This document shows, in pieces, positions 4,873-24,331 of a stretch of 64,000 nt of DNA. Positions within the stretch are counted from its first letter, which is position 1, and each line of letters starts with the position of its first letter. This DNA comes from an uncultured delta proteobacterium (GTDB lineage Bacteria > Desulfobacterota > Binatia > UBA9968), in the NCBI GenBank assembly GCA_963737905.1, contig CAVTUQ010000037.1, positions 189,164 to 253,163 on the forward strand. Reading direction: 5' to 3'. A program made the translations under genes and the position numbers. Below the pieces are notes generated by a model. It was not told the origin of the DNA. It was given only the letters and a program-made list of their open reading frames with translations, and ran no database searches.

Positions 4873-7800
4873 ATGAGCCAGAACTGGATCGATATCCGGG
4901 GCGCCAAACAAAACAATCTCAAGAATCTTGACTTGCAAATACCCCTGAACGCTCTGACGGTCATCACCGGCGTGAGCGGGTCAGGAAAATCGACCTTGGC
5001 CTTCGACATTCTCTATGCGGAGGGTCAGCGACGGTACGTCGAAAGCTTTTCCGCCTACGCGCGGCAGTTTCTCGACCGGATGGACAAGCCCGATGTGGAG
5101 AGCATTGAGGGCATTCCGCCGACCATCGCCATCGATCAGAGCCGGCCGGTCAGAACTTCGCGCTCCACCGTCGGCACGATGACCGAGCTCCACGATCATT
5201 TCAAGCTGCTTTTCTCCAAGATCGCCGTGCTCCATTGCCGCGGCTGCGACCGAATCGTCGAGCGCGACAGCGCTCAAACGGTTTTGGCGAAACTTTCTTC
5301 TCTACCGGAAGCCACGCCCATCGTTGTCACGTTTCCGCTCGCTCCTTCTTCCCTGCCGTGGGACGAAGTAAAAAGCGGTCTACAGCAAGCCGGCTTTCAT
5401 CGGCTGCTCATGGAGCGAGATATCCATGATCTCATTGAAATCGGCGTAGCGCCGCCGAGCGATGCAACGTTGGAAGTTATCGCGGATCGAGTCGCCTATC
5501 GTCCCGGCAACAAGAAGAGAATTTCTGATTCTTTGGAGCAAGCCTTTCACTACGGCAAGGGAAGGTTGAATCTTTTCTTCCCGCAAGAAAATTGGCGGCG
5601 GGAGCCCATCAGCAACCATCTCCATTGCCCACACTGTGACATCTCTTATCGTGATCCTGTGGCTAATCTTTTTTCGTTTAACAGCCCATTGGGCGCTTGC
5701 GAAACCTGTCGCGGGTTTGGCCGGGTCATCGATATCGATTTGGATTTAGTCATTCCGGATCCCGGCAAGTCCCTGAACGAAGGCGCCATCAAGCCGTGGA
5801 TCAATCGCACCCGTAGAACTCGCCGGCTGTTGGATTTCTGCGACCGCAAACGGATCCCCACCAAGAAGCCGTTCGGGGACCTTACCGAGAAGCAAAAGCA
5901 GCTGATCCTGGAGGGCGACGGCGACTACAAGGGGATTCGGGGCTGGTTTCGCCGTCTTGAGCGCAAGAGTTATCGCATGCATGTGCGGGTGCTGCTGTCG
6001 CGCTACCGCGCCTATCTTCTCTGTCCCGACTGTCAGGGCAGCCGTCTCAAACCAGACGCGCTTCAGTATCGGATCGAAGGCAAGGATGTCGCGCAAGTCA
6101 ACGCCATGAATGTCGGTGAGGCTCACCGCTTTTTTACCCAACTCAAGCCGGCCGGAGCTAAAGATCAAATCGCGAGCCTGATTCTCGACGAGATTCGCCG
6201 GCGTCTCAGTTATCTTGTCGGGGTCGGCCTTGAATACTTGACGTTGGACCGCCAGTCGCGGACGCTCTCCGGCGGCGAGTTGGAGCGAGTCGACCTCACC
6301 ACCGCCATCGGTTCATCATTGGTCAACACGTTGTATGTGCTGGATGAGCCCTCCATCGGGCTCCATCCCCGCGATAGCCGCCGGCTGGTGGAGATCCTCC
6401 ATCGTCTGCGAGCGAATCAAAACACCGTCGTCGTGGTGGAGCACGATCCCGAGATCATCAAAGAAAGCGACTACATCATCGACCTCGGCCCCAAAGCAGG
6501 CGAGCAGGGCGGGCAAGTGATGTTCGCCGGCTCCTACCATGATCTTCTGAAGAACGAAGAATCGCTAACCGCGGCTTACCTGAGCCAACGCAAGATGATC
6601 CCGTTCCCTTCCCGCAACCGTAAGCAGCTCTTGCAACGGTCCATCAAGATCACCGGCGCGCATGCGAACAACCTGAAGAATATCGACGTCGAGATTCCGC
6701 TGGGTGTTTTTGTCTGCATTACGGGTGTTTCAGGATCGGGGAAGTCGAGCCTCGTCGATGAAGTCCTTCACCGGAATCTGAAAAAACTCAAGGAAGCTCC
6801 CTCCGCAAATATCGTTCACTGTGCGAAAATTGAAGGGGTGGACAAGATCTCCGAGGTCGTCTTGGTCGATCAGTCACCGGTAGGGACCACGCCGAGGTCT
6901 AATCCGGTGACGTACATGAAGGTCTTCGACGCCATCCGCAGGCTCTTCGCCATCGCCGACCTCTCGCGCATGCGCGGTTACACGCCATCGACCTTTTCTT
7001 TCAATGTAGAAGGCGGACGGTGCGAAACCTGCCGCGGCGAGGGTTTTGAAAAAATTGAGATGCAATTCCTCTCGGACGTCTACACATCCTGTCCGGAGTG
7101 TCACGGCAGCCGGTACCGTGAAGAAGTTCTCGAAGTCACCTACCGAGGCAAAAACATCCGACGGATCTTAGATCTCACGGTCTCCGAAGCTATGGAGTTC
7201 TTCAAGGACCTGCCTGAAATAAAGGAAGGGCTCTATCCGCTGCGCGCCGTGGGGCTCGAATATGTTCGGCTCGGACAGCCCCTCACGACACTGTCCGGCG
7301 GAGAATCGCAGCGGTTGAAATTGGCCGCGCACATGGCCAAGGCCAAGAAGGCCGGAACGCTTTTCGTTTTCGATGAGCCTACCACTGGTTTACATTTCCA
7401 CGACATCGACCGGCTGCTTTGGGCGTTCAATGAATTGATCGATCAAGGCCACTCCGTCGTCGTCATCGAACATAACTTGGAAGTGGTCAAGTGCGCCGAT
7501 CACATCATCGACCTTGGGCCGGAAGGGGGCGACGGCGGAGGCTGCATCGTCGCCACCGGTACTCCGGAGCAAATTTCACGCGTCGAAAGCTCTCACACCG
7601 GCGTTTATCTACGGCCTTATCTAAAAAAAGCAGCCCCCTCTCCTTTCACGCCGCTGCTTGAAAAGCGTTCAAGGATTCAAGAGTTCAGGGGCTCAACGGC
7701 AGAGAACGCCATTACGATCGTCGGCGCCAAGGAGCACAATCTCAAGAATATCAGCCTCGCCATTCCCCGAGACCGTTTCGTGGTCATCACCGGCTTGAGC

Positions 7801-10554
7801 GGCTCGGGGAAATCCTCGCTGGCGTTCGACATCATCTACGCGGAAGGACAGCGGCGTTACATCGACAGCCTTTCCGCTTATGCGCGGCAGTTTCTTCAGA
7901 TCATGGCGAAGCCTAATGTCGATCTGCTCGCCGGTATACCCCCGACGGTCGCTATCGAGCAAAGGCTCAGCCAAGGCGGCAAGAAATCGACCGTTGCCAC
8001 GGTGACGGAGATCTATCACTACCTGCGGCTGCTCTACTCCAAAGTCGGAAAACAGCACTGCGTTCAATGCGGCCGGCAAATTCGGTCTCTCAGTCGCAGC
8101 CAAATCTTCGATCGCATCGGTCGTTCCTATCGCGGCAAAGAGGTGATGATCTTGAGCCCCATCGTGCGCGGGCGCAAAGGTTTCCACAAAGAAGTCATCG
8201 CCGGCGCGCGACGGTTGGGTTATCGCAGGGCGCGTATCGACGGCGAGCTGCTCGATCTCAGGGCGCCTCAGCTTACCCAGGGTTTGGAGCGGTTTAAGGA
8301 GCATGACATCGACATCGTGATCGGCAAAGCGAAAGCGGGCGGACGCGATGTTGAGGCGCTGGTGGATCAGGGGCTCCGCATTGGGAACGGCGTGATTCAT
8401 CTCATATCCGAGCGGGGTGAGCAAATCTTCAATCAGCGCCTTTTCTGTCTCCGGTGCGGCATCGGCTATGAGCCCCTCGATCCGCGGCTGTTCTCTTTCA
8501 ACAGCCGGCAAGGGGCTTGTTCAGAATGCGGCGGCATGGGCTTTCAATGGGACTTCGATCCTGGACTGCTCTTCGCCAATCCGCGGCAGTCGGTCAGCGA
8601 AACTTTAAACGGCATTTCCGCTTTCACCTCAGAAAATGGAACCAGCCTGCGCCGCTCTATGGAGCGTCTTCTGAAAGAATTGGCGGAAAAGCACAACATC
8701 GATATCGATAAGCCTTTCGGACGCCTGGCCAAGAAAACGCAAGAACAAGTGCTCTACGGCACCAGTGGCCGTTCCGGATTTGTCGGCTTCATCCCTCATC
8801 TGCGAGAGCTATGGCAGAATGGCGAAAAAGACGGAAACCAGGATCTCGCAGAGCTTTTGAGCGAATCTCCCTGCGATAGTTGCCATGGGAGAAGACTCAA
8901 TTCACGGGCTCAAGCCGTGCGCGTGGACGGTAAGTCGATTTGGCAGCTCACGGCGCTGTCGGTACAGGAGTCCAAAGACTATTTCGACTCATTGCAGCTC
9001 GCCTACGCCGATAATGGCGCTGCGGAACGCGACCGCGCGGTGGCGGACAAGATTCTTAAAGAAATCCAACAACGACTCACGTTCCTCTCGGAAGTCGGTT
9101 TGCCTTATCTGACCCTCGACCGCCGTGCGGACACGCTGTCCGGCGGTGAGGCGCAGCGCATTCGGCTTGCAGCGCAACTTGGATCGAATCTCCGCGGCGT
9201 CTGCTACATCTTGGACGAACCTACGATCGGTCTTCACCCGCGCGACAACGCCATGCTGCTGCGCACCCTGCGCCGGCTCGGGGCAGTCGGTAACAGCGTG
9301 TTGGTGGTCGAGCACGACGAGGCAACGATTGAATCCGCCGATCTCATCGTCGACCTCGGACCGGGCGCGGGTGTTCGCGGCGGGAACGTTGTTTCTATCG
9401 GATCGCCCACGGAGATCAGGAACAACCCCAATTCTCTTACGGGAATGTTTCTCAAAGCGGAGCGCAAGCGGCTCGGCCCGACGCGTGAACTTAGTAACAC
9501 TAATTGGCTCACCATCCGAGAAGCAAAAGCTAACAATCTCAAAAACGTCGACGTGCGCTTGCCGCTCGGCATGTGGACCTGTGTCACGGGGATCTCCGGG
9601 TCAGGAAAAAGCACTTTGGTCAAGGAAATCCTTTACAAGGGCCTGAAGACAAAGATCGGCCAATTCGCCGGACGGCCGGGCGCGCACAGGGAGATTATCG
9701 GCTGGCAGTCGCTGGAACGAATCGTCGAGGTCGATCAAACCCCCATCGGCAAAACTCCCCGTTCTGTCCCGGCCTCTTATGTCGGCTTGTTGGACGAGAT
9801 CCGCAAACTTTACGCGCTCGCGCCGGAGTCTCGGCTGCGAGGCTACACCTCGAGCCGATTTTCATTCAACGTCCGAGGCGGGCGTTGCGAGGAATGCGCG
9901 GGCCAGGGAAAAATTCGCAAAGAGATGAGTTTCTTGCCGGATGTCTTCGTGGATTGCGAGGTCTGCGGCGGCCAGCGGTTCAATGAAGAGACGCTCAGCA
10001 TTCGTTACAATGATAAAAATATCGCCGATGTTTTCCACATGACCGTAGAAGAGGCCGTGCCGTTCTTCCACGCCATTCCAAAAGTCGCCCGGCCACTCAA
10101 GATCCTCGATGACATCGGCATGGGCTACATCACACTCGGGCAGGCCAGCAACACGCTATCCGGGGGTGAAGCGCAGAGAATCAAGCTTGCCTATGAGTTG
10201 GGCAAGGAGTCCCATGGGAAAACCCTCTACGTTTTGGATGAGCCCACCACAGGGCTCCACTTTGTCGACGTGGAGAAACTGATTCACATTCTTCATCGTC
10301 TGGTGGAAATGGGCAACACGGTTGTCACCATCGAGCACAACCTCGACATCGTAAAGGACGCGGATTATCTAATCGACCTGGGACCTGAAGGTGGCGAACA
10401 AGGCGGCTACGTCGTCGCCTGCGGCCCGCCCTTGGAAGTTGCCAAAGATGGTAAGCAATCCCATACGGCTCGATTTCTCCGGGAGTACCTCAATGGCGGG
10501 CCGGCGAAATCATCCGGCGACGTTACGACGGTACATCATGAAGAAGTAGCATAG
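4873..10554 (+). CDS. uvrA: Excinuclease ABC subunit A, tandem-duplicated (two UvrA units, four ABC ATPase modules)
   Basis: 1893 aa uninterrupted ORF with four Walker A (GxSGSGKS), four LSGGE signatures, four DEP Walker B and repeated CxxC zinc fingers. Confidence 0.96.
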   Translation: MSQNWIDIRGAKQNNLKNLDLQIPLNALTVITGVSGSGKSTLAFDILYAEGQRRYVESFSAYARQFLDRMDKPDVESIEGIPPTIAIDQSRPVRTSRSTVGTMTELHDHFKLLFSKIAVLHCRGCDRIVERDSAQTVLAKLSSLPEATPIVVTFPLAPSSLPWDEVKSGLQQAGFHRLLMERDIHDLIEIGVAPPSDATLEVIADRVAYRPGNKKRISDSLEQAFHYGKGRLNLFFPQENWRREPISNHLHCPHCDISYRDPVANLFSFNSPLGACETCRGFGRVIDIDLDLVIPDPGKSLNEGAIKPWINRTRRTRRLLDFCDRKRIPTKKPFGDLTEKQKQLILEGDGDYKGIRGWFRRLERKSYRMHVRVLLSRYRAYLLCPDCQGSRLKPDALQYRIEGKDVAQVNAMNVGEAHRFFTQLKPAGAKDQIASLILDEIRRRLSYLVGVGLEYLTLDRQSRTLSGGELERVDLTTAIGSSLVNTLYVLDEPSIGLHPRDSRRLVEILHRLRANQNTVVVVEHDPEIIKESDYIIDLGPKAGEQGGQVMFAGSYHDLLKNEESLTAAYLSQRKMIPFPSRNRKQLLQRSIKITGAHANNLKNIDVEIPLGVFVCITGVSGSGKSSLVDEVLHRNLKKLKEAPSANIVHCAKIEGVDKISEVVLVDQSPVGTTPRSNPVTYMKVFDAIRRLFAIADLSRMRGYTPSTFSFNVEGGRCETCRGEGFEKIEMQFLSDVYTSCPECHGSRYREEVLEVTYRGKNIRRILDLTVSEAMEFFKDLPEIKEGLYPLRAVGLEYVRLGQPLTTLSGGESQRLKLAAHMAKAKKAGTLFVFDEPTTGLHFHDIDRLLWAFNELIDQGHSVVVIEHNLEVVKCADHIIDLGPEGGDGGGCIVATGTPEQISRVESSHTGVYLRPYLKKAAPSPFTPLLEKRSRIQEFRGSTAENAITIVGAKEHNLKNISLAIPRDRFVVITGLSGSGKSSLAFDIIYAEGQRRYIDSLSAYARQFLQIMAKPNVDLLAGIPPTVAIEQRLSQGGKKSTVATVTEIYHYLRLLYSKVGKQHCVQCGRQIRSLSRSQIFDRIGRSYRGKEVMILSPIVRGRKGFHKEVIAGARRLGYRRARIDGELLDLRAPQLTQGLERFKEHDIDIVIGKAKAGGRDVEALVDQGLRIGNGVIHLISERGEQIFNQRLFCLRCGIGYEPLDPRLFSFNSRQGACSECGGMGFQWDFDPGLLFANPRQSVSETLNGISAFTSENGTSLRRSMERLLKELAEKHNIDIDKPFGRLAKKTQEQVLYGTSGRSGFVGFIPHLRELWQNGEKDGNQDLAELLSESPCDSCHGRRLNSRAQAVRVDGKSIWQLTALSVQESKDYFDSLQLAYADNGAAERDRAVADKILKEIQQRLTFLSEVGLPYLTLDRRADTLSGGEAQRIRLAAQLGSNLRGVCYILDEPTIGLHPRDNAMLLRTLRRLGAVGNSVLVVEHDEATIESADLIVDLGPGAGVRGGNVVSIGSPTEIRNNPNSLTGMFLKAERKRLGPTRELSNTNWLTIREAKANNLKNVDVRLPLGMWTCVTGISGSGKSTLVKEILYKGLKTKIGQFAGRPGAHREIIGWQSLERIVEVDQTPIGKTPRSVPASYVGLLDEIRKLYALAPESRLRGYTSSRFSFNVRGGRCEECAGQGKIRKEMSFLPDVFVDCEVCGGQRFNEETLSIRYNDKNIADVFHMTVEEAVPFFHAIPKVARPLKILDDIGMGYITLGQASNTLSGGEAQRIKLAYELGKESHGKTLYVLDEPTTGLHFVDVEKLIHILHRLVEMGNTVVTIEHNLDIVKDADYLIDLGPEGGEQGGYVVACGPPLEVAKDGKQSHTARFLREYLNGGPAKSSGDVTTVHHEEVA
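7667..7698 (+). repeat. Four degenerate 8-mer repeats inside the uvrA inter-unit linker
   Basis: GTTCAAGG ATTCAAGA GTTCAGGG GCTCAACG. Confidence 0.5.
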
Positions 10555-13191: not shown

Positions 13192-14873
13192 TCATAGCGA
13201 GATAGAAAGAATCCCCGCGGTTTGGAGTGCCTGTGCTATAAGCGCGACGCCGAAGACAAGAATAAAAGCCGACGAAGTCAACGGCAGCCACCGGGTCGTT
13301 AGCGGGCTATTAGTTTCGAAACGTGACATAAACTCGCGCGCATAAACCATCAAAAGACCAATGGTAATCAGAACCACAGCTAATCCAACGCTGAATGCGA
13401 CGATCAAAAGCAACCCAAAGCCAATTCGCCCCATCGAAACGGCACTCAAGAGTACCACTAGCGCCGCCGGGCAAGGAACGATGCCGCCACTAATACCCAA
13501 CGTCAAAAGTTCCCGGTAAGACACTTGTCGGTCGCATCGTGATCTGATGAAGCTGGCCATGAATGCAATGGCGTGACACGTGATGATGATGGTGATGGTC
13601 GTGGTCATCGGGCCATGAGAATGTTTCTATGGTGTTGGTGATAATGATTCGAGAGCCCGTCCTTGCCTAGATACCTCCGCACCAAGAGGACCGCACCTAA
13701 TCCGGTGATCAGGACACCGGAAACCACGCCTAGCCAGGGATAAAGCCGCTCCGGCACGATGTACTGTGAAGCGTACAAGGTCACCCCGCCAAGCAAATAT
13801 ACTCCAGCCGTATGCGCCGCAGTTACAATCAATCCGAGCAAAAACGCATGCTGCAAGTTCCCACGCGAACCCACAAGATACGCAGCAACTAAAGTTTTCC
13901 CGTGACCAGGCTCCAGGGCATGAAACGCGCCAAGGCCTACAGCAACGCCAAGAGCGATTAAGATAATCCCAGATCCAATTCTCCGTTGCTATCAACTCCG
14001 TAAACGAATTCCGTGGCGTCGTCTGTTGATTAGCTTGTAACTGAACTGCGCTCATTTTCTTTTGTCCGGTCGTATCGGCATCGATAATGGCGGGTTTAGA
14101 TTATTCGCGTAGGAATGGATTGTTTTACCGGCTCCGACCTGCTGGAATCGTGTGAAATCCTGCACGCGTCTATCTGAAGCTTGTTAACCGGGATCGCTTT
14201 CTCTCGGGAGCCTCGAATCAACTCCGAGAGCTCGCCGTTGATGCGACGGCGCAGGCGCAACCGCAGTGCTGAATGTCACATTGGCTTCCAGGTCCTGCGG
14301 TGGGCTGTTCAACAGATCGGTGGGATAGTTATTAACTGGGAGCTGCGATCGAGATCAGGAACCGAGCTGTCCGATATTCTGGCTCCCGGACGCTGCAATC
14401 GCGATGATCTCTTTCCAGCCCGCCCGTCCAGGGAAATTGCCGTCACGATAGCTGAGTAGATAGTCGGCGGGGTTCGAGTCGCCTATGAGCTTCGCTTTGT
14501 ACAGAAAACCGACTTTCATTGTCGGCAGACCACCGGCCCCCGGCGGGAAAATGATCTCCCTGGATTCTGCTCGCAGATCGAGACGTTTACCGTTGACCTC
14601 AAGCGCCAAGCCATCGCGAAGCAGTTCGGCCTTGCGCTGAAGATAAGTGCTTAGACTCGAATCTCCTGTCTTCGGTACAATCCCATTTTCTTGAATCTCT
14701 TGAAACGTCGGGATCTCGGCCATATCGATCAGGTAGCGCAATTCAATTTCATTCCCGCCAATACGGAGCGCGCTATATTGGCTGATGCTAAAGTTGCCGA
14801 GCGGATGGGCCGAGCCGCTTTCGGTAAAGGCGAGCAGCATGAAGGCAAGCAAACCGACAATCAGGAAGCGCAT
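13192..14873 (-). CDS. RcnA/HoxN-like nickel/cobalt transporter with N-terminal exported domain; several frameshifts
   Basis: Signal peptide then HPLGNFS; membrane part has HALEPGHGKTLVAAYLVG, HTAGV, a His-rich loop (13575-13640) and GISGGIVPCPAALVVLL. Confidence 0.82.
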
Positions 14874-14877
14874 GACC

Positions 14878-16194
14878 TTACCTCCTGTCCAGTGGTTGCC
14901 GCAGAGCAGCCACTTGATCTTCGGAATTTTCTAACTCTACTAAGGTGCGCTTGGCGTTATCGGCGAAAAAAATATGAAAGTGTGGATTGATCGAGAGCGC
15001 CCGACGGAGATGCTCCTTGGCTTTTCCTTTCTCCCCGAGGCGGTGATAAATCATCCCGGCATGGTAGTGAAGCTTCGCGTCTTGGGTGCCTAATTTGAGC
15101 GCCTGTCTCACGGCCTCGCGTGCTTCCTCAAATTTGCCGTTCTTGAATAGGTTCCAGGCCAGGACATCATAGGCATAGATATCGCGCCGGTAGTTTAATT
15201 CCCGCTGCGCCAACTCCAGTCCTTGTTGCAGCTTGATGTCGTGATCGGCATAGAAATAGGCCAACTCCCGATTGTAGAGAGCCTTATTGAGCGCGCTCAG
15301 TTGCCCGATGTACTCCACTAACTCGTATTGCTTGCGTGCCTCGTTTGGATTTCCGATCTTGGCGTAGACATCGCCTAGCGCAGCGACATATTCAGGCATC
15401 GGCACGGTGTTGATCGCTTCTCGATAAAGCTGAATAGCTTCCGGGAAACGCTCCCGCGCCGATCGCACCTGTGCCAGCCCAGCTAGAGAACGATAATATC
15501 CGGGGTAGGTCTCCAGCGCTTGCACGTATTCACTTTCGGCTTGAGCCAATTTGCCGATGGCATAATATTCCGCAGCAAGCTGCCACTGTGCCCAGGCAAT
15601 ACTTTCCTTCGGCTGGTTTTCTTGTTTGCCTAGTTGAATCGCCGTCTTCAAATCAGAGATCGCTCCAGGGGTGTCGCCCTTCAAGCTTTTTATGCCCGAT
15701 AGCCGGCTGTACGACGAGAGACTTTCCTTTAGAGTCATCATCCTCTTGTAGGTTTCTTCCGCTTGCTCATATTTGCCGGTTTCGAGATACGCATCGCCGA
15801 GAACGCCATGAGCATCCATGTCGGTTGGGTCCAGCGTGATCGCCTCTCGGGCTTGGGCTGCGGCAGCCTCAAAATCGTGACGCGAAGCCAATACATGAGC
15901 CAAATGGCGCCGAACACCGCTTAGCTGGGGATTGAGGCTTAAAGACTTTCTCAACGCCTGCTCCGCGAGATCGAGGTAACTGTTATCGCCGCTTTCTCGG
16001 GATTTTTGGAGATAGGCGTCTCCCAGTTGGTAATACGCAATCGGATTATTCGGATTGCGACGAATTTTGAATTGTGATTGAGCAATCGCCCGGTCAGAGG
16101 CCGAAGAGGCGGACCAGGCAAGTTGGGGTGACAGCGAGACGATCAAGAGAAAGAGAAATAGAGTTGGCGTGCTATATTTTGGTCGTTTTTCCAT
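14878..16194 (-). CDS. Exported tetratricopeptide-repeat protein
   Basis: Signal peptide and many TPR helices (AYYQLGDAYL, HGVLGDAYLETGKYEQA, YHAGMIY); SD before ATG 16194. Confidence 0.88.
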   Translation of the reverse strand: MEKRPKYSTPTLFLFLLIVSLSPQLAWSASSASDRAIAQSQFKIRRNPNNPIAYYQLGDAYLQKSRESGDNSYLDLAEQALRKSLSLNPQLSGVRRHLAHVLASRHDFEAAAAQAREAITLDPTDMDAHGVLGDAYLETGKYEQAEETYKRMMTLKESLSSYSRLSGIKSLKGDTPGAISDLKTAIQLGKQENQPKESIAWAQWQLAAEYYAIGKLAQAESEYVQALETYPGYYRSLAGLAQVRSARERFPEAIQLYREAINTVPMPEYVAALGDVYAKIGNPNEARKQYELVEYIGQLSALNKALYNRELAYFYADHDIKLQQGLELAQRELNYRRDIYAYDVLAWNLFKNGKFEEAREAVRQALKLGTQDAKLHYHAGMIYHRLGEKGKAKEHLRRALSINPHFHIFFADNAKRTLVELENSEDQVAALRQPLDRR

Positions 16195-16259
16195 ATCCCC
16201 TCCCGAGCGGTGAAGGGGCAGCCCCGTCGAATCGGTGAGGCCACCCCCTCGCATTAATT

Positions 16260-17891
16260 TTAGTCCACCGGACAGTCCGTTGCCGCAAAAGGAACGATTG
16301 GTTGGGCGCAGCCGGAAGTGCTGGGACTTTGATGCCGGCTATTGCGGCCACTGTTAGCAAAAGCCACGTAAGGGAACGTTTCCTGATAGGACCTATCGTT
16401 GCTATTCACGCCATCGCCGATCCGGTTGTTGGGAAAGCCGTCGAAAGGGGGGCCGGCTAAAACGCCGACCACGGCTCGCGCCGATATATCGGTCACATCA
16501 TCGGACACACGACGTCCATTGGGATATCCGGCGAGGTCTCCGACTAGTACTCCCAAGCGTTTCCGCTGGTCCTGGGGCGTGGGACCTATGCCTGTGTTCA
16601 GACGCAGCAAATCGGCGATCGGGCCGGATTGCAGACCGGAGCATCCGGGGCAAAGCACGGTCGTATATTGCACCAACGGCGCCAAATCTAGCCGTGGCGG
16701 AGAAGGGATCGGTACGGCTCCGCCGTAGGCCGCATTGATAACCCGTGCCAGAAGTGGATCTAACAAATAGTTGCTGAACTGCGCGTCATCTTCGGGCTCA
16801 CTCATGCTGAATTTGTCTTTGTCGCCAGTGCCGATGATCAACTCGTTGATCAGCGCATTTCCCATCCGCTGAATCTGCACGACGTTCGCCGACAGGACTG
16901 ACTTTCCACCGGGCGTTCCGGGCAAGGCCTTAACTCGCGGGCGCGATGTGGTACCGTAGGTGCCGATCAAAGCCATGGGATCGTTCACAGGATGGATCGC
17001 GCCATCTTTTGTGAGCATCGCGATCGGCACCTCGATGGCAATCGAGTTGACATTGAAGCCTGCCACGGCATCCGGGGCGAAGTTCTTGTTGTCGGCCAAG
17101 TCCTGATCATCCGTCAGTACTCCCGGAACCCCGGTCCCAAACGCACTCGGACGGAAATTGAGCGTATCAAAGGCGGCGCCGAGATCGATATAAAATGGAT
17201 CATCCACTGTGCCAGCAAAAACTCTAACGCCATTACCAAGGTCGTAGATGCCCTGGCGGGCCACGTAGTCGTAGTTCGGCATCGTCCTAGGACCGACATT
17301 TGAGGGAACGGCGATTAATTTTCTACCAGTGCTCAAATCGGTCGACCGCCAACGGTTGCCGACCTTTTTCAGCAGCGCGACAGTATAAGTCTGGCGCAGA
17401 CTCAAGCCTTCCGATCCTGGTCCGTCCAATGCCGTGATGGCCGGGGGAATCAGCGGAGTCCCGGGCGGCAGCGGGGATGGCGAGTTTACCGGTGTAGAAA
17501 CGCCATCGCCGACGCCGACAAACCCGGTGAAAACGTCAGGCAGTCGTACCTCCGTTTTGAAGCGGAACTGAATCTTGACATCTTCTTTGGCGTCTTGATT
17601 GTTATCGATTTTCATTTCGTAGAGAATTTCCGGGTCAAACGGAAAATAATTGGGCCCGTTGGCCGGCTCCAATAAAGGATCGACGTTCAAAATCATCGTT
17701 ACCTTGGTTGGGTCGTCATAGCTGACAAAGGCAAACCAATCGGTGATATCCGCTTTGTTGTCCAAAGCGGTAATCGGTGCCTCTCGATGGTTTGCCGCCC
17801 GAGCAACCGGCACTGTTGTCACAACGGTCATCAGGGCGGTCAGAAAAGTGGCGACACATTGATAGAATGAATTTCTCCGCAAACGTTTCAT
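16260..17891 (-). CDS. DUF4331 family exported protein
   Basis: Signal peptide then NHREAP, ADITDWFAF, FAGTVDDPFYID, RMGNALINE, GYPNGRRVSDDVTD and FPYV, the DUF4331 signature set. Confidence 0.9.
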   Translation of the reverse strand: MKRLRRNSFYQCVATFLTALMTVVTTVPVARAANHREAPITALDNKADITDWFAFVSYDDPTKVTMILNVDPLLEPANGPNYFPFDPEILYEMKIDNNQDAKEDVKIQFRFKTEVRLPDVFTGFVGVGDGVSTPVNSPSPLPPGTPLIPPAITALDGPGSEGLSLRQTYTVALLKKVGNRWRSTDLSTGRKLIAVPSNVGPRTMPNYDYVARQGIYDLGNGVRVFAGTVDDPFYIDLGAAFDTLNFRPSAFGTGVPGVLTDDQDLADNKNFAPDAVAGFNVNSIAIEVPIAMLTKDGAIHPVNDPMALIGTYGTTSRPRVKALPGTPGGKSVLSANVVQIQRMGNALINELIIGTGDKDKFSMSEPEDDAQFSNYLLDPLLARVINAAYGGAVPIPSPPRLDLAPLVQYTTVLCPGCSGLQSGPIADLLRLNTGIGPTPQDQRKRLGVLVGDLAGYPNGRRVSDDVTDISARAVVGVLAGPPFDGFPNNRIGDGVNSNDRSYQETFPYVAFANSGRNSRHQSPSTSGCAQPIVPFAATDCPVD

Positions 17892-17975
17892 GACTGATTT
17901 TCCTTTCTGTCTGTTTGTGTACCGATGCAGCCCACCAGGGCTGGTCACTCCAACCCTGGTGGAGTTCCGCGTCTA

Positions 17976-18626
17976 TTACCGGCTCGCAAAACGCTCGGGA
18001 AATTGTTTGACGATCGCGGCCGCGAGCGGGTCGGCGATCATCCCCATGTGGCCGGCGGCAGTGCGAATCGCCGTATAGCTCTTGTTCATATCGCCGGCCG
18101 CTTGGGCGTCGATCACGTCCTTGAGTGTCAAAACGTGATCCTTCACCAAGCCGGCGACGACATCCTTCGGAAGATTCGGATTCGCCGAGGCGAGGAATGC
18201 GCCAAAATCTTGCGTGTACTGGACCAAATCGTTGACCGCCTTGCTTTTCTTAGCATCGTCTTTGGTGGCAACACCGACCGTATAGTCCACGACAAAGCCG
18301 ATATGCTTGCGCCACAAAGGTAGGAACGCTTGTTCCGCGCCTTGGCCGTAGACCAAGCCGATGGCTTTGGAGATGTCGACGGAGTTGGCATCAAGCGACC
18401 CAGCGGCAGCTTTAAACTCGCCGTCACGGCCAGCCAGGGCTGCACCCGTAGCTGCTGCTGCCAGGAAGACATGCTCTCGGAACAACGAATTCAGACCGGT
18501 TCTCAGATCTGAACTCATCGCTCCGTGATGGTTCAGCTCCGCTGACTTCACATTCGCCGTGTAGCCAACGCCCAAGAGCGCCACCACTACGGCAGTCCCT
18601 ACGAATTTTCTTAAATTACTATTCAT
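17976..18626 (-). CDS. Exported helical-bundle His-rich protein (family often annotated 'copper amine oxidase-like')
   Basis: Signal peptide; helical protein with spaced His (REHV, WRKHI, KDHV, GHM); strong SD AGGAGG. Confidence 0.7.
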   Translation of the reverse strand: MNSNLRKFVGTAVVVALLGVGYTANVKSAELNHHGAMSSDLRTGLNSLFREHVFLAAAATGAALAGRDGEFKAAAGSLDANSVDISKAIGLVYGQGAEQAFLPLWRKHIGFVVDYTVGVATKDDAKKSKAVNDLVQYTQDFGAFLASANPNLPKDVVAGLVKDHVLTLKDVIDAQAAGDMNKSYTAIRTAAGHMGMIADPLAAAIVKQFPERFASR

Positions 18627-18677
18627 TTTCTCCTCCTATTGGATTTGTTAATCGGTCGCCGTCATTTTCTGATAACG

Positions 18678-19091
18678 TTACTTGACAAGGATTCGGCCAC
18701 GCATGGATTGGTGGCGTTCGCAAAAGTATTCGTACTCACCCGGGTGATCGAAAGTGAAGCTGGCCGTGGTACTTTTGCCGGAAAGGCTGAGACTCACTGA
18801 CCCATTCCGGTTTTCCGGTGTACCCAAGGTGACGGTGTGCTGGATGTCGTCTTCATTGACCCAGGTTACCGTCGTGCCGGCTTTAACCTCCAATTGTGCA
18901 GGCTGGTACTGGAAGAGTTGAATCGTAACCGCAGATCCCGACTGGAAACGTGGGCCCACACTTTCACCGCTCTCAGCACTGGCTGCTTGAGTCTGAAGAA
19001 TGTCGTCACATTCATCGTGTGCAAGCAGCGGTGAACTCCCCGCCAAGATTGCCGCGGTTAAGACTGCGGAACTCCGCCAATACCTCTTCAT
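18678..19091 (-). CDS. Plastocyanin/azurin-type cupredoxin
   Basis: Signal peptide; type-1 Cu ligands H (QHTV) and C-x2-H-x2-M (YFCERHQSMRG). Confidence 0.9.
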   Translation of the reverse strand: MKRYWRSSAVLTAAILAGSSPLLAHDECDDILQTQAASAESGESVGPRFQSGSAVTIQLFQYQPAQLEVKAGTTVTWVNEDDIQHTVTLGTPENRNGSVSLSLSGKSTTASFTFDHPGEYEYFCERHQSMRGRILVK

Positions 19092-19151
19092 GAAACCTCT
19101 CCTTGCCTGTCGGTTGTCCGTCAAACTGACCTTGACCTCTCATGTTTTCTC

Positions 19152-19177
19152 TACGCGTCTGTCTGGCGATTCGGATT
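19152..19177 (-). promoter_or_regulatory. ECF sigma promoter AATCC-N17-CGTA for the cupredoxin/DUF4331 operon
   Basis: Minus strand reads AATCC gaatcgccagacagacg CGTA, about 60 nt upstream of the cupredoxin ATG. Confidence 0.75.
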
Positions 19178-19222
19178 GCCGAAAAGAAAATTTTGTCGAT
19201 TAAAAAAATTCTTATAAGAGTA

Positions 19223-19248
19223 AATCCAAACCCATCGGCGCGATCGTA
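19223..19248 (+). promoter_or_regulatory. ECF sigma promoter AATCC-N17-CGTA (autoregulatory)
   Basis: AATCC aaacccatcggcgcgat CGTA upstream of the sigma gene; same boxes and spacer as the divergent copy. Confidence 0.75.
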
Positions 19249-19435
19249 TTAAGTCTGGGATGTGTTTGCGCAACGGGAATCGATTGGCCTAGAATGCCTC
19301 GCGACAAGGGAGAGGCCGTGACTCACGAAGCAGGGGTAGATCTGCCGTACCTACCCCGAAACGCAAGCTGAGGAAATGTTTCTTGTGCTGATCATGACCT
19401 CGACGCGAGGCGACATACGTGCATAGGTACTGTCA

Positions 19436-19996
19436 GTGACTGCCGATCCAACCATCGCCGTCCGTCTTATCCAGCAGGTCGCGAATCAGGACCGCGACGC
19501 CTTCAGCCAGCTTTACGATCGATTCTCGACCCTGGTCTTTACCATAGCCATGCGGATCCTGAAGGCTCGTTCAGACGCCGAGGATTTACTCCAAGAGGTT
19601 TTCGTCCAAATTTGGCGGCAAGCGCAGAACTACAAGGCCGAGCGGGGCAGTCCGGAAGCATGGATTGTTAATATTGCGCGCAGCCGGGCAATCGACAAAA
19701 TACGTTCTATACGTAGAATGGAAAAGAGCTTCGTCCTCACCGACGATCCAGCGCGCGCGGAATCGAGCGACAACGTAGAATCATCAGCGGCGGAGTCGGA
19801 GACCCGGTTGACGATGAGCAACGCTTTGGCAGACTTGCCCGAGGCCCAGCGCAAAGTGCTGGAGCTGGCCTATTTTGCCGGCCTGACCCAGACCGAAATT
19901 GCCGAACGCTTGGCAGAGCCTTTGGGCACAGTCAAGACCAGGATGCGCTCCGGGATTCAGCGTCTCCGCGAGATACTCGGAACACAGGCGACGTAA
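19436..19996 (+). CDS. ECF RNA polymerase sigma factor (SigK-like)
   Basis: Region 2 AEDLLQEVFVQIW and region 4 LAYFAGLTQTEIAERLAEPLGTVKTR. Confidence 0.93.
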   Translation: MTADPTIAVRLIQQVANQDRDAFSQLYDRFSTLVFTIAMRILKARSDAEDLLQEVFVQIWRQAQNYKAERGSPEAWIVNIARSRAIDKIRSIRRMEKSFVLTDDPARAESSDNVESSAAESETRLTMSNALADLPEAQRKVLELAYFAGLTQTEIAERLAEPLGTVKTRMRSGIQRLREILGTQAT

Positions 19997-20769
19997 TGAG
20001 TAACGAACACGAACATTGGCAAGAGCATAGTGAAATCTATGCCCTCGGCGCACTCGATGGGCAGGAGCTGAAAGAATTTGAAGCTCATCTGGCCTCCGGC
20101 TGCGCCATCTGCGAAGCCTACGTCCGGGAGACGCGCGAGACGCTGGCCGTGCTTCACAGGTCCCTACGTCCGGAGGTGCCGCCGCTAGCCATTAAGGCGC
20201 GCGTTCTGGAGCAGATCGCGCCCCAGGCGATTGCGCGACCGAGACAGGAAAAAGCTCCACGGTTCAATTGGAATTGGTGGGGTTTAGGTATCGGTGCCGT
20301 TGCGACTGCGGCAGTCGCCTTGGTTTTGACTTCCAACCTGACACGCACCCAAACCGAGCTTGAAAAGGCTAAAGCGCAACTCGCCGCCGCGCAAATCGAA
20401 TCGGCGCAAAAAGACGAGCTGCTTCAATTGCTCTCTTCCCAAGACGTCCGACTGATTGAGCTCAAAGGTCTCGAAGCGGCGCCGGCAGCCAGAGCTAAAC
20501 TATTCTGGAACCCCGGCGCACGCAGTGGAATCTTGCTTACCAATGGACTCCCCAAGACGTCAACCGACAAAGCCTACGAACTATGGGGAATCGTGGGCAA
20601 GGAACCGGTTCCCGCGGGAGTTTTCCGCGTCGACGATCAGGGCCAGGCAAGATTTCGTATGCCGGTCCTCGCCCAAGGAAAACAATTCGACAAATTCGCC
20701 GTAACTGTCGAACCTGCGGCCGGCGGGGAAAAACCTTCCGGCCCGATGGTTTTGTTAGGAAGCCTCTAA
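19996..20769 (+). CDS. Anti-sigma factor, zinc-binding N-terminus + TM + RskA domain
   Basis: YALGAL...HLASGCAIC, a TM helix, and C-terminal YELW...FAVTVEPAAGGEKPSG; coupled to the sigma gene. Confidence 0.9.
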   Translation: MSNEHEHWQEHSEIYALGALDGQELKEFEAHLASGCAICEAYVRETRETLAVLHRSLRPEVPPLAIKARVLEQIAPQAIARPRQEKAPRFNWNWWGLGIGAVATAAVALVLTSNLTRTQTELEKAKAQLAAAQIESAQKDELLQLLSSQDVRLIELKGLEAAPAARAKLFWNPGARSGILLTNGLPKTSTDKAYELWGIVGKEPVPAGVFRVDDQGQARFRMPVLAQGKQFDKFAVTVEPAAGGEKPSGPMVLLGSL

Positions 20770-21066: not shown

Positions 21067-23252
21067 ATGAGCCTGCTTACTATTATGTGGTCGATCGCTG
21101 GGGCGATGTGCCTCACCCTTGCTATCGTGCACGGTGTGATATGGATCCGCCAGCGACACCACGCCTGGGCCAATTTGCTATTCACTTTTGCAGCGTTGGG
21201 TGCCGCGGGCTCGTCGTTCATGGAGCTGTGGGGGCTTCACGCCGACAGCGTCGAAACATACGTATTGGTGGCTCGATATCAGAATATTTGCGTCTTTGCT
21301 TTATTGGTCGCGCTTATCTGGTTCGTCTATGTTTACTTTGAAACCGCCAATCGATGGCTCGCGCTGGCGATAACCGGCCTGTGGGTTATTTCGATCATTG
21401 TCAACTTTCTGTCGCCTCATAGTCTCACCTTCTCGGAAATCACCAGTTTGAAGCGCATCGCGCTGCCCTGGGGTGAAGACTTTGCGGTCCCCGTCGGCAC
21501 CACCAACCCCTGGACGTCTGTCGCTAATTTCGCTTCTGTTTTACTCGTAATTTTCGTGGCGGATGCCTCGGTGCGTTTGTGGCGGCGCGGCGACCGCCGC
21601 CGGGCTGGAATTGTGGGCGGAAGCATTCTGTTCTTCATCGATTGCTGCTGGCATTCATACCCCTTTGGTCGACGAGGGTATCATCCAGACACCTTACATG
21701 ATTTCGTTCGCCTTCCTGGCGATTATCTTTGCCATGGGATTCGAGCTCATCGACGATGTTCTTCGGGCGTCGATCTTGTCGAAGGAAGTTGCAAGCAATG
21801 AGCGTCGTTGGCGGGCATTATTGGACAACGTCCAACTTCTCGTTGCGGGCGTCGATGACCAGGGTAATTACAACTACGTCAATCCGTATTTCTGTTCGAC
21901 CCTCGGCTATACTCCCGACGAAATACGGCGGCGGCATTTCACTGACGTGATCCCATCCACCGCGAGCGAACCCATCGGGCAAGAATTTCAGCATGTAATG
22001 GATCAGGAGAAAGCGATACAACCGCGGCGCGATCTTGTAATGCGTACCAGGGGGGGCGACTTAAGAAAGATCGTCTGGTCGAACGTGACGCTGTATAACC
22101 GTGACGGTCGCCCGGCCGGGGTACTGAGCATCGGGGCCGACGTTACAGTTCAGAGAGAGGCGGAAGAAGGCCTGAAGACAGCCTTGGAGGAGATTCAAGA
22201 ACTCAAGGAAAAACTTCAAGCGGAATGCCTCTACCTGCGCGAAGAGATCAATGTCAAAAATAATTTTGGCCGGATTGTTGGCGAGAGCGATGCCTTAAAA
22301 TATGTGTTGATGCGGGTTGAACAGGTCGCCCCGACGGAATCTACGGTGCTGCTCTTGGGAGAGACAGGCGTCGGTAAGGAACTGGTCGCCCGTGCGATCC
22401 ACGATATGAGTCGCCGCTCTCGCGCGCCGCTCATCAATTTAAACTGCGCGGCGTTGTCTGAAACTCTCGTTGAAAGCGAACTCTTCGGCCACGAAAAGGG
22501 AGCATTTACCGGGGCGGAGCGTCAGCATAAAGGCCGCTTCGAGATCGCTCACGGCGGCACGATCTTGCTGGACGAGGTAGGCGAGTTGCCGGCGGCCACT
22601 CAGGCGAAACTGCTGCGTGTCCTGGAGGAAGGCGAGTTCGAGCGAATTGGCAGCGGCACCACGCTCAAGGTCAATGTCCGCGTCATAGCGGCAACCAACC
22701 GGAATCTGTACCAGGAAGTCGCTGCAGGCAGGTTCCGGCAAGATCTTTTCTATCGACTCAACGTTTACCCGATCACGATCCCGCCATTGAGACAGCGCCG
22801 GGAAGATATTCCGCTGCTGGTTGAGTATTTTGTCCGAGAAATTGGCACGCGGATGGGAAAGGAATTCAAAGCGGTGCCGGCCGTGGTCCTGCGTGAGCTG
22901 ATGGAATACCACTGGCCTGGAAATATACGAGAACTGGAAAACGTAATCGAGCGCGCGGTGATCATTTCGCCGGCCGGGGTACTGCGCTTGCCGGAGCCCC
23001 TCGTCCGGGATGAACCAAAGCTACTCCGACGAAGGTTACCAAAATGGTACTGCGGAAACTTTACAGAAGGTTGCGACACTGGATGAGGCGGAAAGGCAGC
23101 ATATTTTGCGCGCTTTAGAGGCCACGGGTTGGCGCATCAGCGGCCCCAACGGCGCGGCAGCGATGCTCAAGCTCAATCCCTCTACCTTAAGATTTCGCAT
23201 GAAGAAGCTCGGTCTAGGTCGAAATCGGAAAAACCAAGCAGAATACCATTGA
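21067..23252 (+). CDS. Membrane-anchored PAS-domain sigma-54 enhancer-binding protein; two frameshifts
   Basis: Multi-TM N-terminus, PAS, AAA+ with [28 protein letters not shown] and RQDLFYRL, then a Fis-type HTH in ORF 23010..23252. Confidence 0.9.
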
Positions 23253-23326: not shown

Positions 23327-24331
23327 ATGAAGACCAATTTGGCATTTGTCTTATGGGTCTTGTTGACGGCCACCGGCGCCGCCCATGCAAATTTGACTCG
23401 ACCGCTGGCAAAGGACGGCCCCACGCCTATTTTCGTATCGGTGTACGTTTTGGACATTGATGAAGTGAATAGCGCGGATCAAAGTTTCAAGGCAAACGTC
23501 TTCTACCAAATGCGCTGGCGCGATCCAAGCTTGTCGCATCGCGGACCCGGCAAAGTGCGCCGGCCGTTAAACGAGGTTTGGCACCCTGGGCTGCAAATCG
23601 TCAGTCAGCAGCGGGTCTTCCCCACCTTTGCGGAGCTGGTGGAGATCGCGCCCGACGGAGAGGTCTTATACCGCCAGCGCGTATGGGGGTCTTTTTCGCA
23701 GCCGCTTAACGTGCGCCGATTTCCGTTTGACCGACAGATTTTCAATTTGCATTTCGTGTCAGAAGCCTATCGACCCGACGAGGTCGAACTGAGACAAGAT
23801 ACGCAGGTCAAGTCCGGCATTGCCGACGTTCTTTCCTTCGCCGACTGGGATATTGTGCGCTGGGAGACACGGACAGAGGCCTATCGAACCAATCCGCAAG
23901 CTGAACCTATAGCTGGATTTGTCTTATCGTTCGAAGCCGCGCGACGCTACGGCTATTTCGTGCTGAAGATCATCTTGCCGCTGGTTTTCATCGTCGCCAT
24001 GTCATGGGCAGTATTCTGGATCGATCCGCACGAAGGAGCAACGCAAATTTCCGTTTCCATCACCACCATATTGACCCTCATTGCGTACCAATTCTCGATT
24101 GGTCATGAGGTTCCTCGTGTGTCGTATCTGACTCGCCTCGATATGTTCATCCTCGGTTCGACCATCCTCATCTTTGGAAGTTTGGTCGAAGTCATGGTCA
24201 CCACGGCGCTAGCAAAACGTGGGCAGGCCGAGAAGGCCCTTTTGCTTGACCAGTGGTCGCGTTGGCTTTTTCCGGCGGCGTTCGCAGTTGTGGTCGCACT
24301 GACGGTCCTTCGCGGCTACACAAATACATGA
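23327..24331 (+). CDS. Prokaryotic pentameric ligand-gated ion channel (GLIC/ELIC-like)
   Basis: Signal peptide, WRDP, WHP, Pro-loop FPFDRQ, four TM helices (ILPLVFIV; M2 ISVSITTILTLIAYQF; YLTRLD). Confidence 0.88.
   Translation: MKTNLAFVLWVLLTATGAAHANLTRPLAKDGPTPIFVSVYVLDIDEVNSADQSFKANVFYQMRWRDPSLSHRGPGKVRRPLNEVWHPGLQIVSQQRVFPTFAELVEIAPDGEVLYRQRVWGSFSQPLNVRRFPFDRQIFNLHFVSEAYRPDEVELRQDTQVKSGIADVLSFADWDIVRWETRTEAYRTNPQAEPIAGFVLSFEAARRYGYFVLKIILPLVFIVAMSWAVFWIDPHEGATQISVSITTILTLIAYQFSIGHEVPRVSYLTRLDMFILGSTILIFGSLVEVMVTTALAKRGQAEKALLLDQWSRWLFPAAFAVVVALTVLRGYTNT

Follow-up and report, generated by a model that had tools for sequence, protein, structure and literature searches.

Results

DUF4331 proteins carry a conserved histidine at the predicted mature N-terminus

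In a 64,000-nt stretch of DNA from an uncultured Binatia bacterium (contig CAVTUQ010000037.1; hereafter the window), a gene for an exported DUF4331 protein lies in an operon next to genes for a TPR protein and a metal permease. Taking all the evidence together, the sequences argue that DUF4331 probably carries a functional metal site at its N-terminus, and the DUF4331-TPR-permease core appears to represent a widespread, undescribed variant of N-terminal-His metal handling. The protein of the window matches PF14224 with 356.9 bits (gathering cut-off, 27). An initial annotation of the locus had read its N-terminus as ARA/ANHREAP (the slash marks the signal-peptide cut), with His as the third mature residue, and had proposed DUF4331 as the metalloprotein of the system. 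These letters are present in the sequence; here, as for the other exported proteins, the cut is predicted from the conserved A-x-A.

The position of this His is conserved in homologues. Small-small-His follows A-x-A in 118 of 120 close DUF4331 homologues, the two misses being longer N-terminal fusions. Of 150 representatives at 50% identity, 115 include the N-terminus, and in 111 of these distant proteins His is mature residue 3, with Ala preceding the cut in 95; moreover, H3, E5, and A6 are invariant in the 77 locus proteins (77/77). The x-x-His tip thus appears to be a family-wide character, and the proposal of DUF4331 as a candidate N-terminal-His metalloprotein is strengthened accordingly by homologues that the initial annotation did not include. 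As a rough baseline, His was found at positions +1 to +3 in 40 of 806 predicted secreted proteins of this genome using a crude signal-peptide predictor, which is unreliable in that it placed the cut differently in four of the five window proteins. Judged from these sequences, the placement of His in DUF4331 reflects more than chance. Two proteins (P0041 and P0046) have an extra N-terminal region ahead of DUF4331.

A shorter DUF4331 subfamily without signal peptide starts with [MV]-S-x-H in six of six divergent loci. All 120 close homologues of one such protein have M, V, or L immediately ahead of S-[NT]-H, and in 97 of them that Met is the called start (M-S-[NT]-H); these homologues are 79-94% identical to the query and, hence, not independent. 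Met is removed before Ser in protein maturation, and therefore His would again be the third residue, by a second maturation route. We suggest that the distance of His3 from the free amine is under selection, and the two maturation routes are the best argument for this. Because our home-made profiles found no TPR protein and no permease at these six loci, the partners appear only with exported DUF4331 forms. The signal-less proteins are ~330 aa long (L179, L180, L182-L185; P0391-P0510) and, by source names, common in mycobacteria; neighbours of signal-less or fragmentary DUF4331 genes include DyP peroxidase, molybdopterin oxidoreductase, SelR, pirin, and encapsulin (chosen by eye, without control).

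A TPR protein and a metal transporter accompany DUF4331 across genomes

We annotated 127 DUF4331 loci with home-made profiles and confirmed representatives by Pfam. The loci comprise 69 from a GTDB scan, 10 of 35 plasmid matches, 8 of 9 Pseudomonadota matches (the ninth, L029, was already among the 69), 5 from relatives, and 35 actinobacterial loci. Neighbours were scored within 4.5 kb in the 109 loci with at least 4 kb of downstream sequence. In agreement with the partnership initially suggested for the TPR protein, its gene lies directly downstream of DUF4331 in 96 of these loci, and the link to metal permeases also held up: a NicO-, HupE/UreJ- or TonB-type transporter is nearby in 77. Specifically, a NicO-type permease is found in 37 loci, a HupE/UreJ-2 permease in 16, a NiCoT in one (L074, which passes the NiCoT cut-off), and a TonB-type receptor in 27; a SigK-like sigma factor is near DUF4331 in 37. 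The NicO and HupE permease types never occur together, and DUF4331 swaps its transport partners between phyla. A permease and a TonB receptor co-occur in only 4 loci, while 50 have a permease alone and 23 a receptor alone, as one would predict if the periplasm can be supplied by either of them. A Fisher test on this exclusion (p 0.018, 70 non-actinobacterial loci) was rejected as evidence because related loci are not independent. Among sampled genomes, DUF4331 is present in 41 of 201 Actinomycetota (a tally that includes three unpublished genomes, which no other result here depends on) and in 9 of 301 Pseudomonadota.

The window permease has the His1 head and the letters (GSA/HPLGNF) reported in the initial annotation, which missed that the gene is not intact: its sequence is split among different reading frames and has a stop at 14357-14355. 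A locus from the same genus (L103) holds an intact orthologue of 558 aa, and contigs from sequencing run X1, 93-97% alike over the permease gene, carry four compensating indels (14390, 14333, 13978, and 13966). The breaks are either assembly errors or decay in one strain. Three sequencing runs share a one-base insertion at 16214. The window fragment matches NicO/DsbD_2 and not PF13795 (HupE/UreJ-2), and intact orthologues match NicO. The best NCBIfam match of the L103 orthologue is PRK10019 (RcnA) with 140.7 bits, below the 195-bit cut-off, while HoxN/HupN/NixA (TIGR00802) gave no match for L103 or L113 at E 0.001.

The His1 head is fused to the permease, the arrangement found in anglerases. 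In NicO-type loci, 39 of 39 permease heads start with A-x-A/H, a count that is partly circular since such starts served to train the head profile. A pattern search recovers this start in 12 of 13 HupE/UreJ-2-type loci, and in the 13th it can be seen by eye. The two head types do not match each other, and neither the window-type head and its profile nor the HupE/UreJ-2 head profile had a significant match among PDB sequences. One 923-aa protein (P0107) has DUF4331 fused to a NicO domain.

This genome contains a second DUF4331 cluster, divergent from that of the window (contig C9:81037-95295; L174:3038-17296). Its order is DUF4331 (SPA/ADH), TPR, a His1-HupE/UreJ-2 permease, a 908-aa protein with weak cytochrome c matches, and a second DUF4331 (IKS/SDH), followed by an unassigned 357-aa gene, a GMC oxidoreductase, and a haem peroxidase; the order is repeated over two contigs of genome G023 (L175 and L176). 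In three relatives (L144, L146, and L163), the same cassette carries DUF4331 from another subfamily (ASHREAPLIALDP) that shares ~47-49% identity with the window DUF4331; the TPR proteins are 54-59% identical, and DUF4331 has possibly been replaced in place. On two Roseobacteraceae plasmids (L085 and L090), DUF4331 has neither a TPR gene nor a permease gene beside it; it is flanked by genes for an A24 peptidase and for type II secretion and may be a secreted substrate. Elsewhere in this genome, a [NiFe]-hydrogenase operon with maturation genes was identified by eye (contig C25:62000-74761); by its motifs, the hydrogenase would be of the high-affinity type, and the operon shows a nickel demand in this organism. 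Searches of the open-access PMC and bioRxiv literature (subscription papers not covered) for DUF4331, "DUF 4331", and PF14224 retrieved no main-text paper.

A predicted ECF-type promoter motif precedes most DUF4331 genes

The extracytoplasmic function (ECF) control initially proposed for these genes gains support from a promoter motif. In 88 of 124 loci, ATCC-N16-18-CG(T/A)A is found in the 450 bases preceding DUF4331, compared with 41 of 790 control windows, and it is present in 57 of the 78 loci without an adjacent sigma gene. The window contains four matches vs 0.3 expected. By weight matrix, its two promoters rank 1 (19223-19248) and 5 among 1538 genome sites; no wider regulon emerged among the top 30 sites beyond these two. 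We discarded another match, found on contig C25 ahead of a gene resembling that of a hydrogenase small subunit, since the weight matrix placed it only 436th among the 1538 sites.

The window sigma factor scores 174.8 bits against the SigK model NF007228, below its 226-bit cut-off, and passes only the ECF superfamily model; the anti-sigma factor matches RskA_C with 83.1 bits (cut-off, 29.4). The sigma factor has no Cys in its 186 aa and, thus, no Cys pair in region 4, so that the disulfide switch described for SigK in part of PMC7509140 cannot apply; in the same part of that source, the signal of SigK-type sigma factors is described as still not known. According to portions of the PMC7826278 supplement, the ECF18 promoter consists of a -35 element TGCATCTT and a -10 element CGTA, DUF4331 is a conserved context of ECF18s13 and ECF214s1, members of these ECF groups respond to reducing conditions, light, solvents, and Ni/Co, and the ECF18 sigma factor RpoP is tied to Ni/Co resistance. 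In 20 of 21 close-relative loci that reach the sigma gene, an extra gene for a ChrR-cupin anti-sigma factor lies upstream of it (L141:3105-3659); the window (19124-19436) is without it. A 1,088-base contig from run X2 reads through the sigma-upstream region without a gap, which confirms the shorter form.

The cupredoxin and the helical protein form a separable pair

The five co-oriented genes divergent from an ECF sigma factor and an RskA-type anti-sigma factor are as initially described, with coordinates and family matches in agreement (Table 1); the idea of a single five-protein system did not survive. A cupredoxin is near only one of the 109 other DUF4331 loci, and the same applies to the helical protein. 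Conversely, in two related genomes (L186 and L187), helical protein, cupredoxin, and sigma factor occur together with no DUF4331 in the fetched locus, and genome G019 has no DUF4331 match. The window therefore joins a widespread DUF4331-TPR-permease core with a separable pair. We suggest that the cupredoxin and the four-His helical protein are a separate sigma-linked pair placed ahead of the core in this lineage and are likely copper-related. Among 33 helical-protein loci in close relatives, DUF4331 follows in 27; these loci, found by searching with window peptides, are closely related to one another.

The cupredoxin scores above the PF00127 cut-off and below the amicyanin equivalog cut-off, and its His, Cys, His, and Met ligands align with amicyanin (E 7e-11). 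Its predicted mature start, LLA/HDEC, is as initially read: by eye, 20 of the 21 close relatives with a visible start have His1 and all 21 have Cys4, and the more distant L186 cupredoxin is without His1. For the helical protein, the metal tip proposed from its start (ELNHH) was not upheld. His falls at mature positions 4-5 or 5-6, the two His are present in 20 and 18 of 75 aligned proteins, and the tip is disordered in the model. Overall, three of the five exported proteins carry a His1 or His3 tip, and the general claim of N-terminal His holds for these; in the TPR protein, inspection of the sequence revealed no N-terminal His, and in the helical protein it is not conserved.

Internal His are invariant in the helical protein where aligned (His24, 75/75; His80, 74/74; His136, 62/62; His165, 61/61). 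His24, His80, and His136 have a 56-residue spacing on alternate helices of a predicted six-helix bundle (predicted local distance difference test (pLDDT) 90.8), from which we infer a central His triad. The protein has three L-x-x-x-H repeats and a His-Met pair, and the family comprises 1806 homologues, often tandem-duplicated and some mis-named copper amine oxidase N-terminal domain, with a Candidatus Binatia homologue at 81% identity. Foldseek against PDB returned nothing significant, a wide structure search returned common bundles only (best Z 8.8), and the ESM Atlas unnamed clusters only. On the basis of the model, the helical protein is a candidate for a new metal-binding fold.

Predicted fold of DUF4331

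The structural model of DUF4331 has a pLDDT of 93.5, with residues 1-10 averaging 83. Neither Foldseek (no significant match) nor a profile search of PDB sequences identified a relative in PDB. In a wide structure search, Sas6 chain 7uwu ranked first (Z 8.7, root-mean-square deviation 4.4, 194 aligned; tool background 7-8), followed, among antibody domains, by the C-terminal part of glucodextranase (Z 5.5), 4jpq (Z 5.4), chain C of ethylbenzene dehydrogenase (EbDH; Z 5.3), and CBM9 (Z 4.9). We take CBM74 of Sas6, CBM9, EbDH gamma, and the other structural matches to be DOMON-like sandwiches, and a DOMON/CBM74-like fold, near background in these scores, is a lead from the model.

Organization of the locus

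All coordinates are positions within the window on the forward strand. The GC content of the operon region is about that of the rest of the window. Other genes include a membrane-sensor/PAS/sigma-54 activator in two overlapping open reading frames, another likely frame shift (21067-23086), a homologue of prokaryotic pentameric ligand-gated ion channels with Neur_chan_LBD and Neur_chan_memb matches (23327-24331), and a UvrA-like protein of double length (1893 aa; 4873-10554), identified by eye.

Table 1 Genes and predicted promoters of the DUF4331 locus in the window.
Feature	Position	Strand	Remarks
Permease	13192..14873	(-)	Signal peptide, His1 head (HPLGNF, His at 14807), RcnA/NicO-type membrane domain, His-rich loop; broken by several frame shifts
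Secreted TPR protein	14878..16194	(-)	Longest open reading frame from 16254; putative start 16194 from signal-like stretch
DUF4331	16260..17891	(-)	Pfam PF14224 E 2e-106; predicted mature start Ala 17795; His3 codon 17789-17787; predicted DOMON-like beta-sandwich
Secreted six-helix protein, 216 aa	17976..18626	(-)	Without Pfam/NCBIfam family; conserved internal His24, His80, His136, His165, Met166
Amicyanin-like cupredoxin	18678..19091	(-)	Type-1 Cu ligand pattern (His; C-x2-H-x2-M); lineage-specific His1-x-x-Cys4 tip
Predicted ECF promoter AATCC-N17-CGTA, five-gene operon	19152..19177	(-)	
Predicted ECF promoter AATCC-N17-CGTA, sigma/anti-sigma	19223..19248	(+)	Putative autoregulation
SigK-like ECF sigma factor, 186 aa	19436..19996	(+)	No Cys
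RskA-type membrane anti-sigma factor	19996..20769	(+)	H-x4-C-x2-C motif

Discussion

The conservation of the His tip, the presence of partners only with exported forms, and the TonB receptor mostly replacing the permease lead us to read the system as one of extracytoplasmic metal delivery. Our working hypothesis, which we hold tentatively and with somewhat less than even confidence, is that DUF4331 is a metalloprotein that would be loaded with metal outside the cytoplasm by its partners. Specifically, a SigK-type sigma factor would switch on the core genes from the predicted promoter, possibly in response to envelope or redox stress. DUF4331 would be secreted, and signal cleavage would free an Xaa-Xaa-His N-terminus, in which the free amine region and His3 would form a Cu(II)/Ni(II) site. 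The TPR protein, through a putative contact, and the His1-headed permease would deliver the metal to DUF4331, with transport presumably directed outward to this end, and either the inner-membrane permease or the TonB receptor could supply the periplasm with metal. Loaded DUF4331 may then act in redox protection or catalysis, which is our most likely guess. In this lineage, the permease families would favour nickel as the metal, and copper would be favoured by the cupredoxin together with the Cu preference of the Ang-1/Ang-2 heads, as given in part of PMC12537917.

Several observations weigh against this hypothesis. The permease is broken in this assembly, and 32 of the 109 loci have none of the scored transporters within 4.5 kb. 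The exclusion between permease and receptor tracks phylum, with receptors mostly in Acidobacteria, and may be explained by kinship. REAP is as conserved as the His that it follows and the tip is ordered in the model, so that the tip could be structural, and the best fold matches of DUF4331 are sugar-binding modules. Finally, uptake is the better fit for permeases of the HupE/UreJ and NiCoT types, which are known or suggested to import metal (PMC12537917).

Uptake would mean that DUF4331 and the TPR protein scavenge trace metal outside and pass it to the His1 head for import by the permease, with the TonB receptor feeding in diderms. We regard this as the main alternative, less likely than not but almost on a par with loading. 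The HupE/UreJ-2 permeases (16), the NiCoT (1), and the TonB receptors (27 of 109 loci) agree with it. ZevB is of the NicO type. ZevAB of H. influenzae is described in part of PMC3417392 as a zinc acquisition system, and capture followed by import has been proposed for His1-head permeases in the examined text of PMC12537917. However, receptor and permease occur together in only 4 of 109 loci, signal-less DUF4331 proteins retain the His3 tip without a permease, and regulation seems to run through an ECF sigma promoter, noting that no search was made for metal-repressor sites.

Alternatively, DUF4331 could be a surface protein of the DOMON type that binds sugar or haem; its His3 tip would then have a structural role or act as a haem ligand, and the link to the permease would be secondary. 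This is decidedly improbable. The top structural matches, including Sas6 (7uwu, Z 8.7) and CBM9 (Z 4.9), would be accounted for, as would the haem peroxidase, GMC oxidoreductase, and cytochrome c-like protein of the C9 cluster; yet the Z-scores are near the background of 7-8 with identities of at most 12%, and His exactly at the third position under two maturation routes as well as the recurring His1-head permeases would be left unexplained. Similarly, the best NCBIfam match of the permease to a Ni/Co efflux family (PRK10019; 140.7 bits, L103), its His-rich loop, and the tie of RpoP to Ni/Co resistance (PMC7826278 supplement, in part) speak for detoxification, in which excess Ni/Co/Cu would leave the cell through an RcnA-like permease and be buffered outside by DUF4331, the head domain, and the helical protein. 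Since the permease falls short of the 195 bits required, the same slot is also filled by TonB receptors and HupE/UreJ-2 permeases, and no RND pump or P-type ATPase recurs among the commonest neighbour clusters, we regard detoxification as very unlikely.

The five-protein redox machine of the initial annotation, if the cupredoxin is taken as an electron partner that DUF4331 cannot do without, is extremely unlikely: the gene order cupredoxin-helical protein-DUF4331 is kept in close relatives (27/33) and the cupredoxin tip is conserved there (His1 20/21, Cys4 21/21, by eye), but the 33 loci are close kin recruited with window peptides, each of the two proteins is near 1/109 other DUF4331 loci, and the pair occurs with sigma and no DUF4331 in L186 and L187, the former with a cupredoxin lacking His1, while G019 has no DUF4331 match.

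Returning to extracytoplasmic loading of DUF4331, its boldest extension is that DUF4331 would constitute a new metalloenzyme class with a DOMON-like body and an ATCUN (amino-terminal Cu(II)- and Ni(II)-binding) active site, matured by a TPR chaperone and a His1 permease and belonging, across phyla, to the core of SigK/ECF18-type stress regulons, and that in this lineage the cupredoxin and a new three-fold His-lined helical barrel would be its copper partners; as a whole, this is unlikely. If loading is correct, DUF4331 would add to the N-terminal-His metalloproteins a large bacterial protein in which an ATCUN site is genetically fixed and which has loading machinery of its own, and studies of SigK-type sigma factors could use it as a conserved readout. 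The role of DUF4331 can be tested sharply through His3, the promoter motif, and the two partner genes.

Comparison with known systems

The system resembles known ones in its parts. Like ATCUN (Xaa-Xaa-His) sites, DUF4331 has His at mature position 3 with a predicted free amine; unlike such sites in general, its tip is fixed family-wide, contains small residues only before His, and runs into the REAP of a folded domain of ~500 residues. The permease head and the cupredoxin carry His at position 1, as in the His1 sites of CopC, lytic polysaccharide monooxygenases, and nickel superoxide dismutase. Over 140-190 residues, the predicted beta-sandwich core of DUF4331 aligns with DOMON-like sandwiches (CBM74 of Sas6, CBM9, EbDH gamma, and the cytochrome domain of cellobiose dehydrogenase), from which it differs in low Z, identity of at most 12%, and large insertions. 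The RskA-type anti-sigma factor and a promoter motif resembling that of ECF18 (PMC7826278, in part) relate the regulators to SigK/RskA and ECF18/ECF19, whereas the sigma factor, unlike SigK, has no Cys and scores below the SigK model cut-off.

With RcnA (PRK10019) and ZevAB, the window-type permease shares a NicO-family membrane domain, the HALEPGHGK and PCPAA segments, and a His-rich loop; unlike RcnA, it scores below the cut-off, has an exported His1 head without Pfam match, and sits in an ECF-linked operon. The closest parallel to its architecture is provided by the anglerases (Ang-1/Ang-2-HupE/UreJ-2), which, in the examined text of Franco Cairo et al. 2025 (PMC12537917), likewise combine a signal peptide, a His1 soluble head, and a nickel-type permease with predicted metal capture by the free N-terminus, and whose HupE/UreJ-2 His1 heads (Ang-1/Ang-2) bind Cu/Ni in vitro with Cu preferred. 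That text describes no DUF4331/TPR/ECF module, and in the part of its source data covered here DUF4331 is a rare neighbour, in three rows, with counts of 1 and 2 in two of these. The membrane domain of the window permease is of the NicO/RcnA type, whereas that of the anglerases, according to the same text, is of the HupE/UreJ-2 type.

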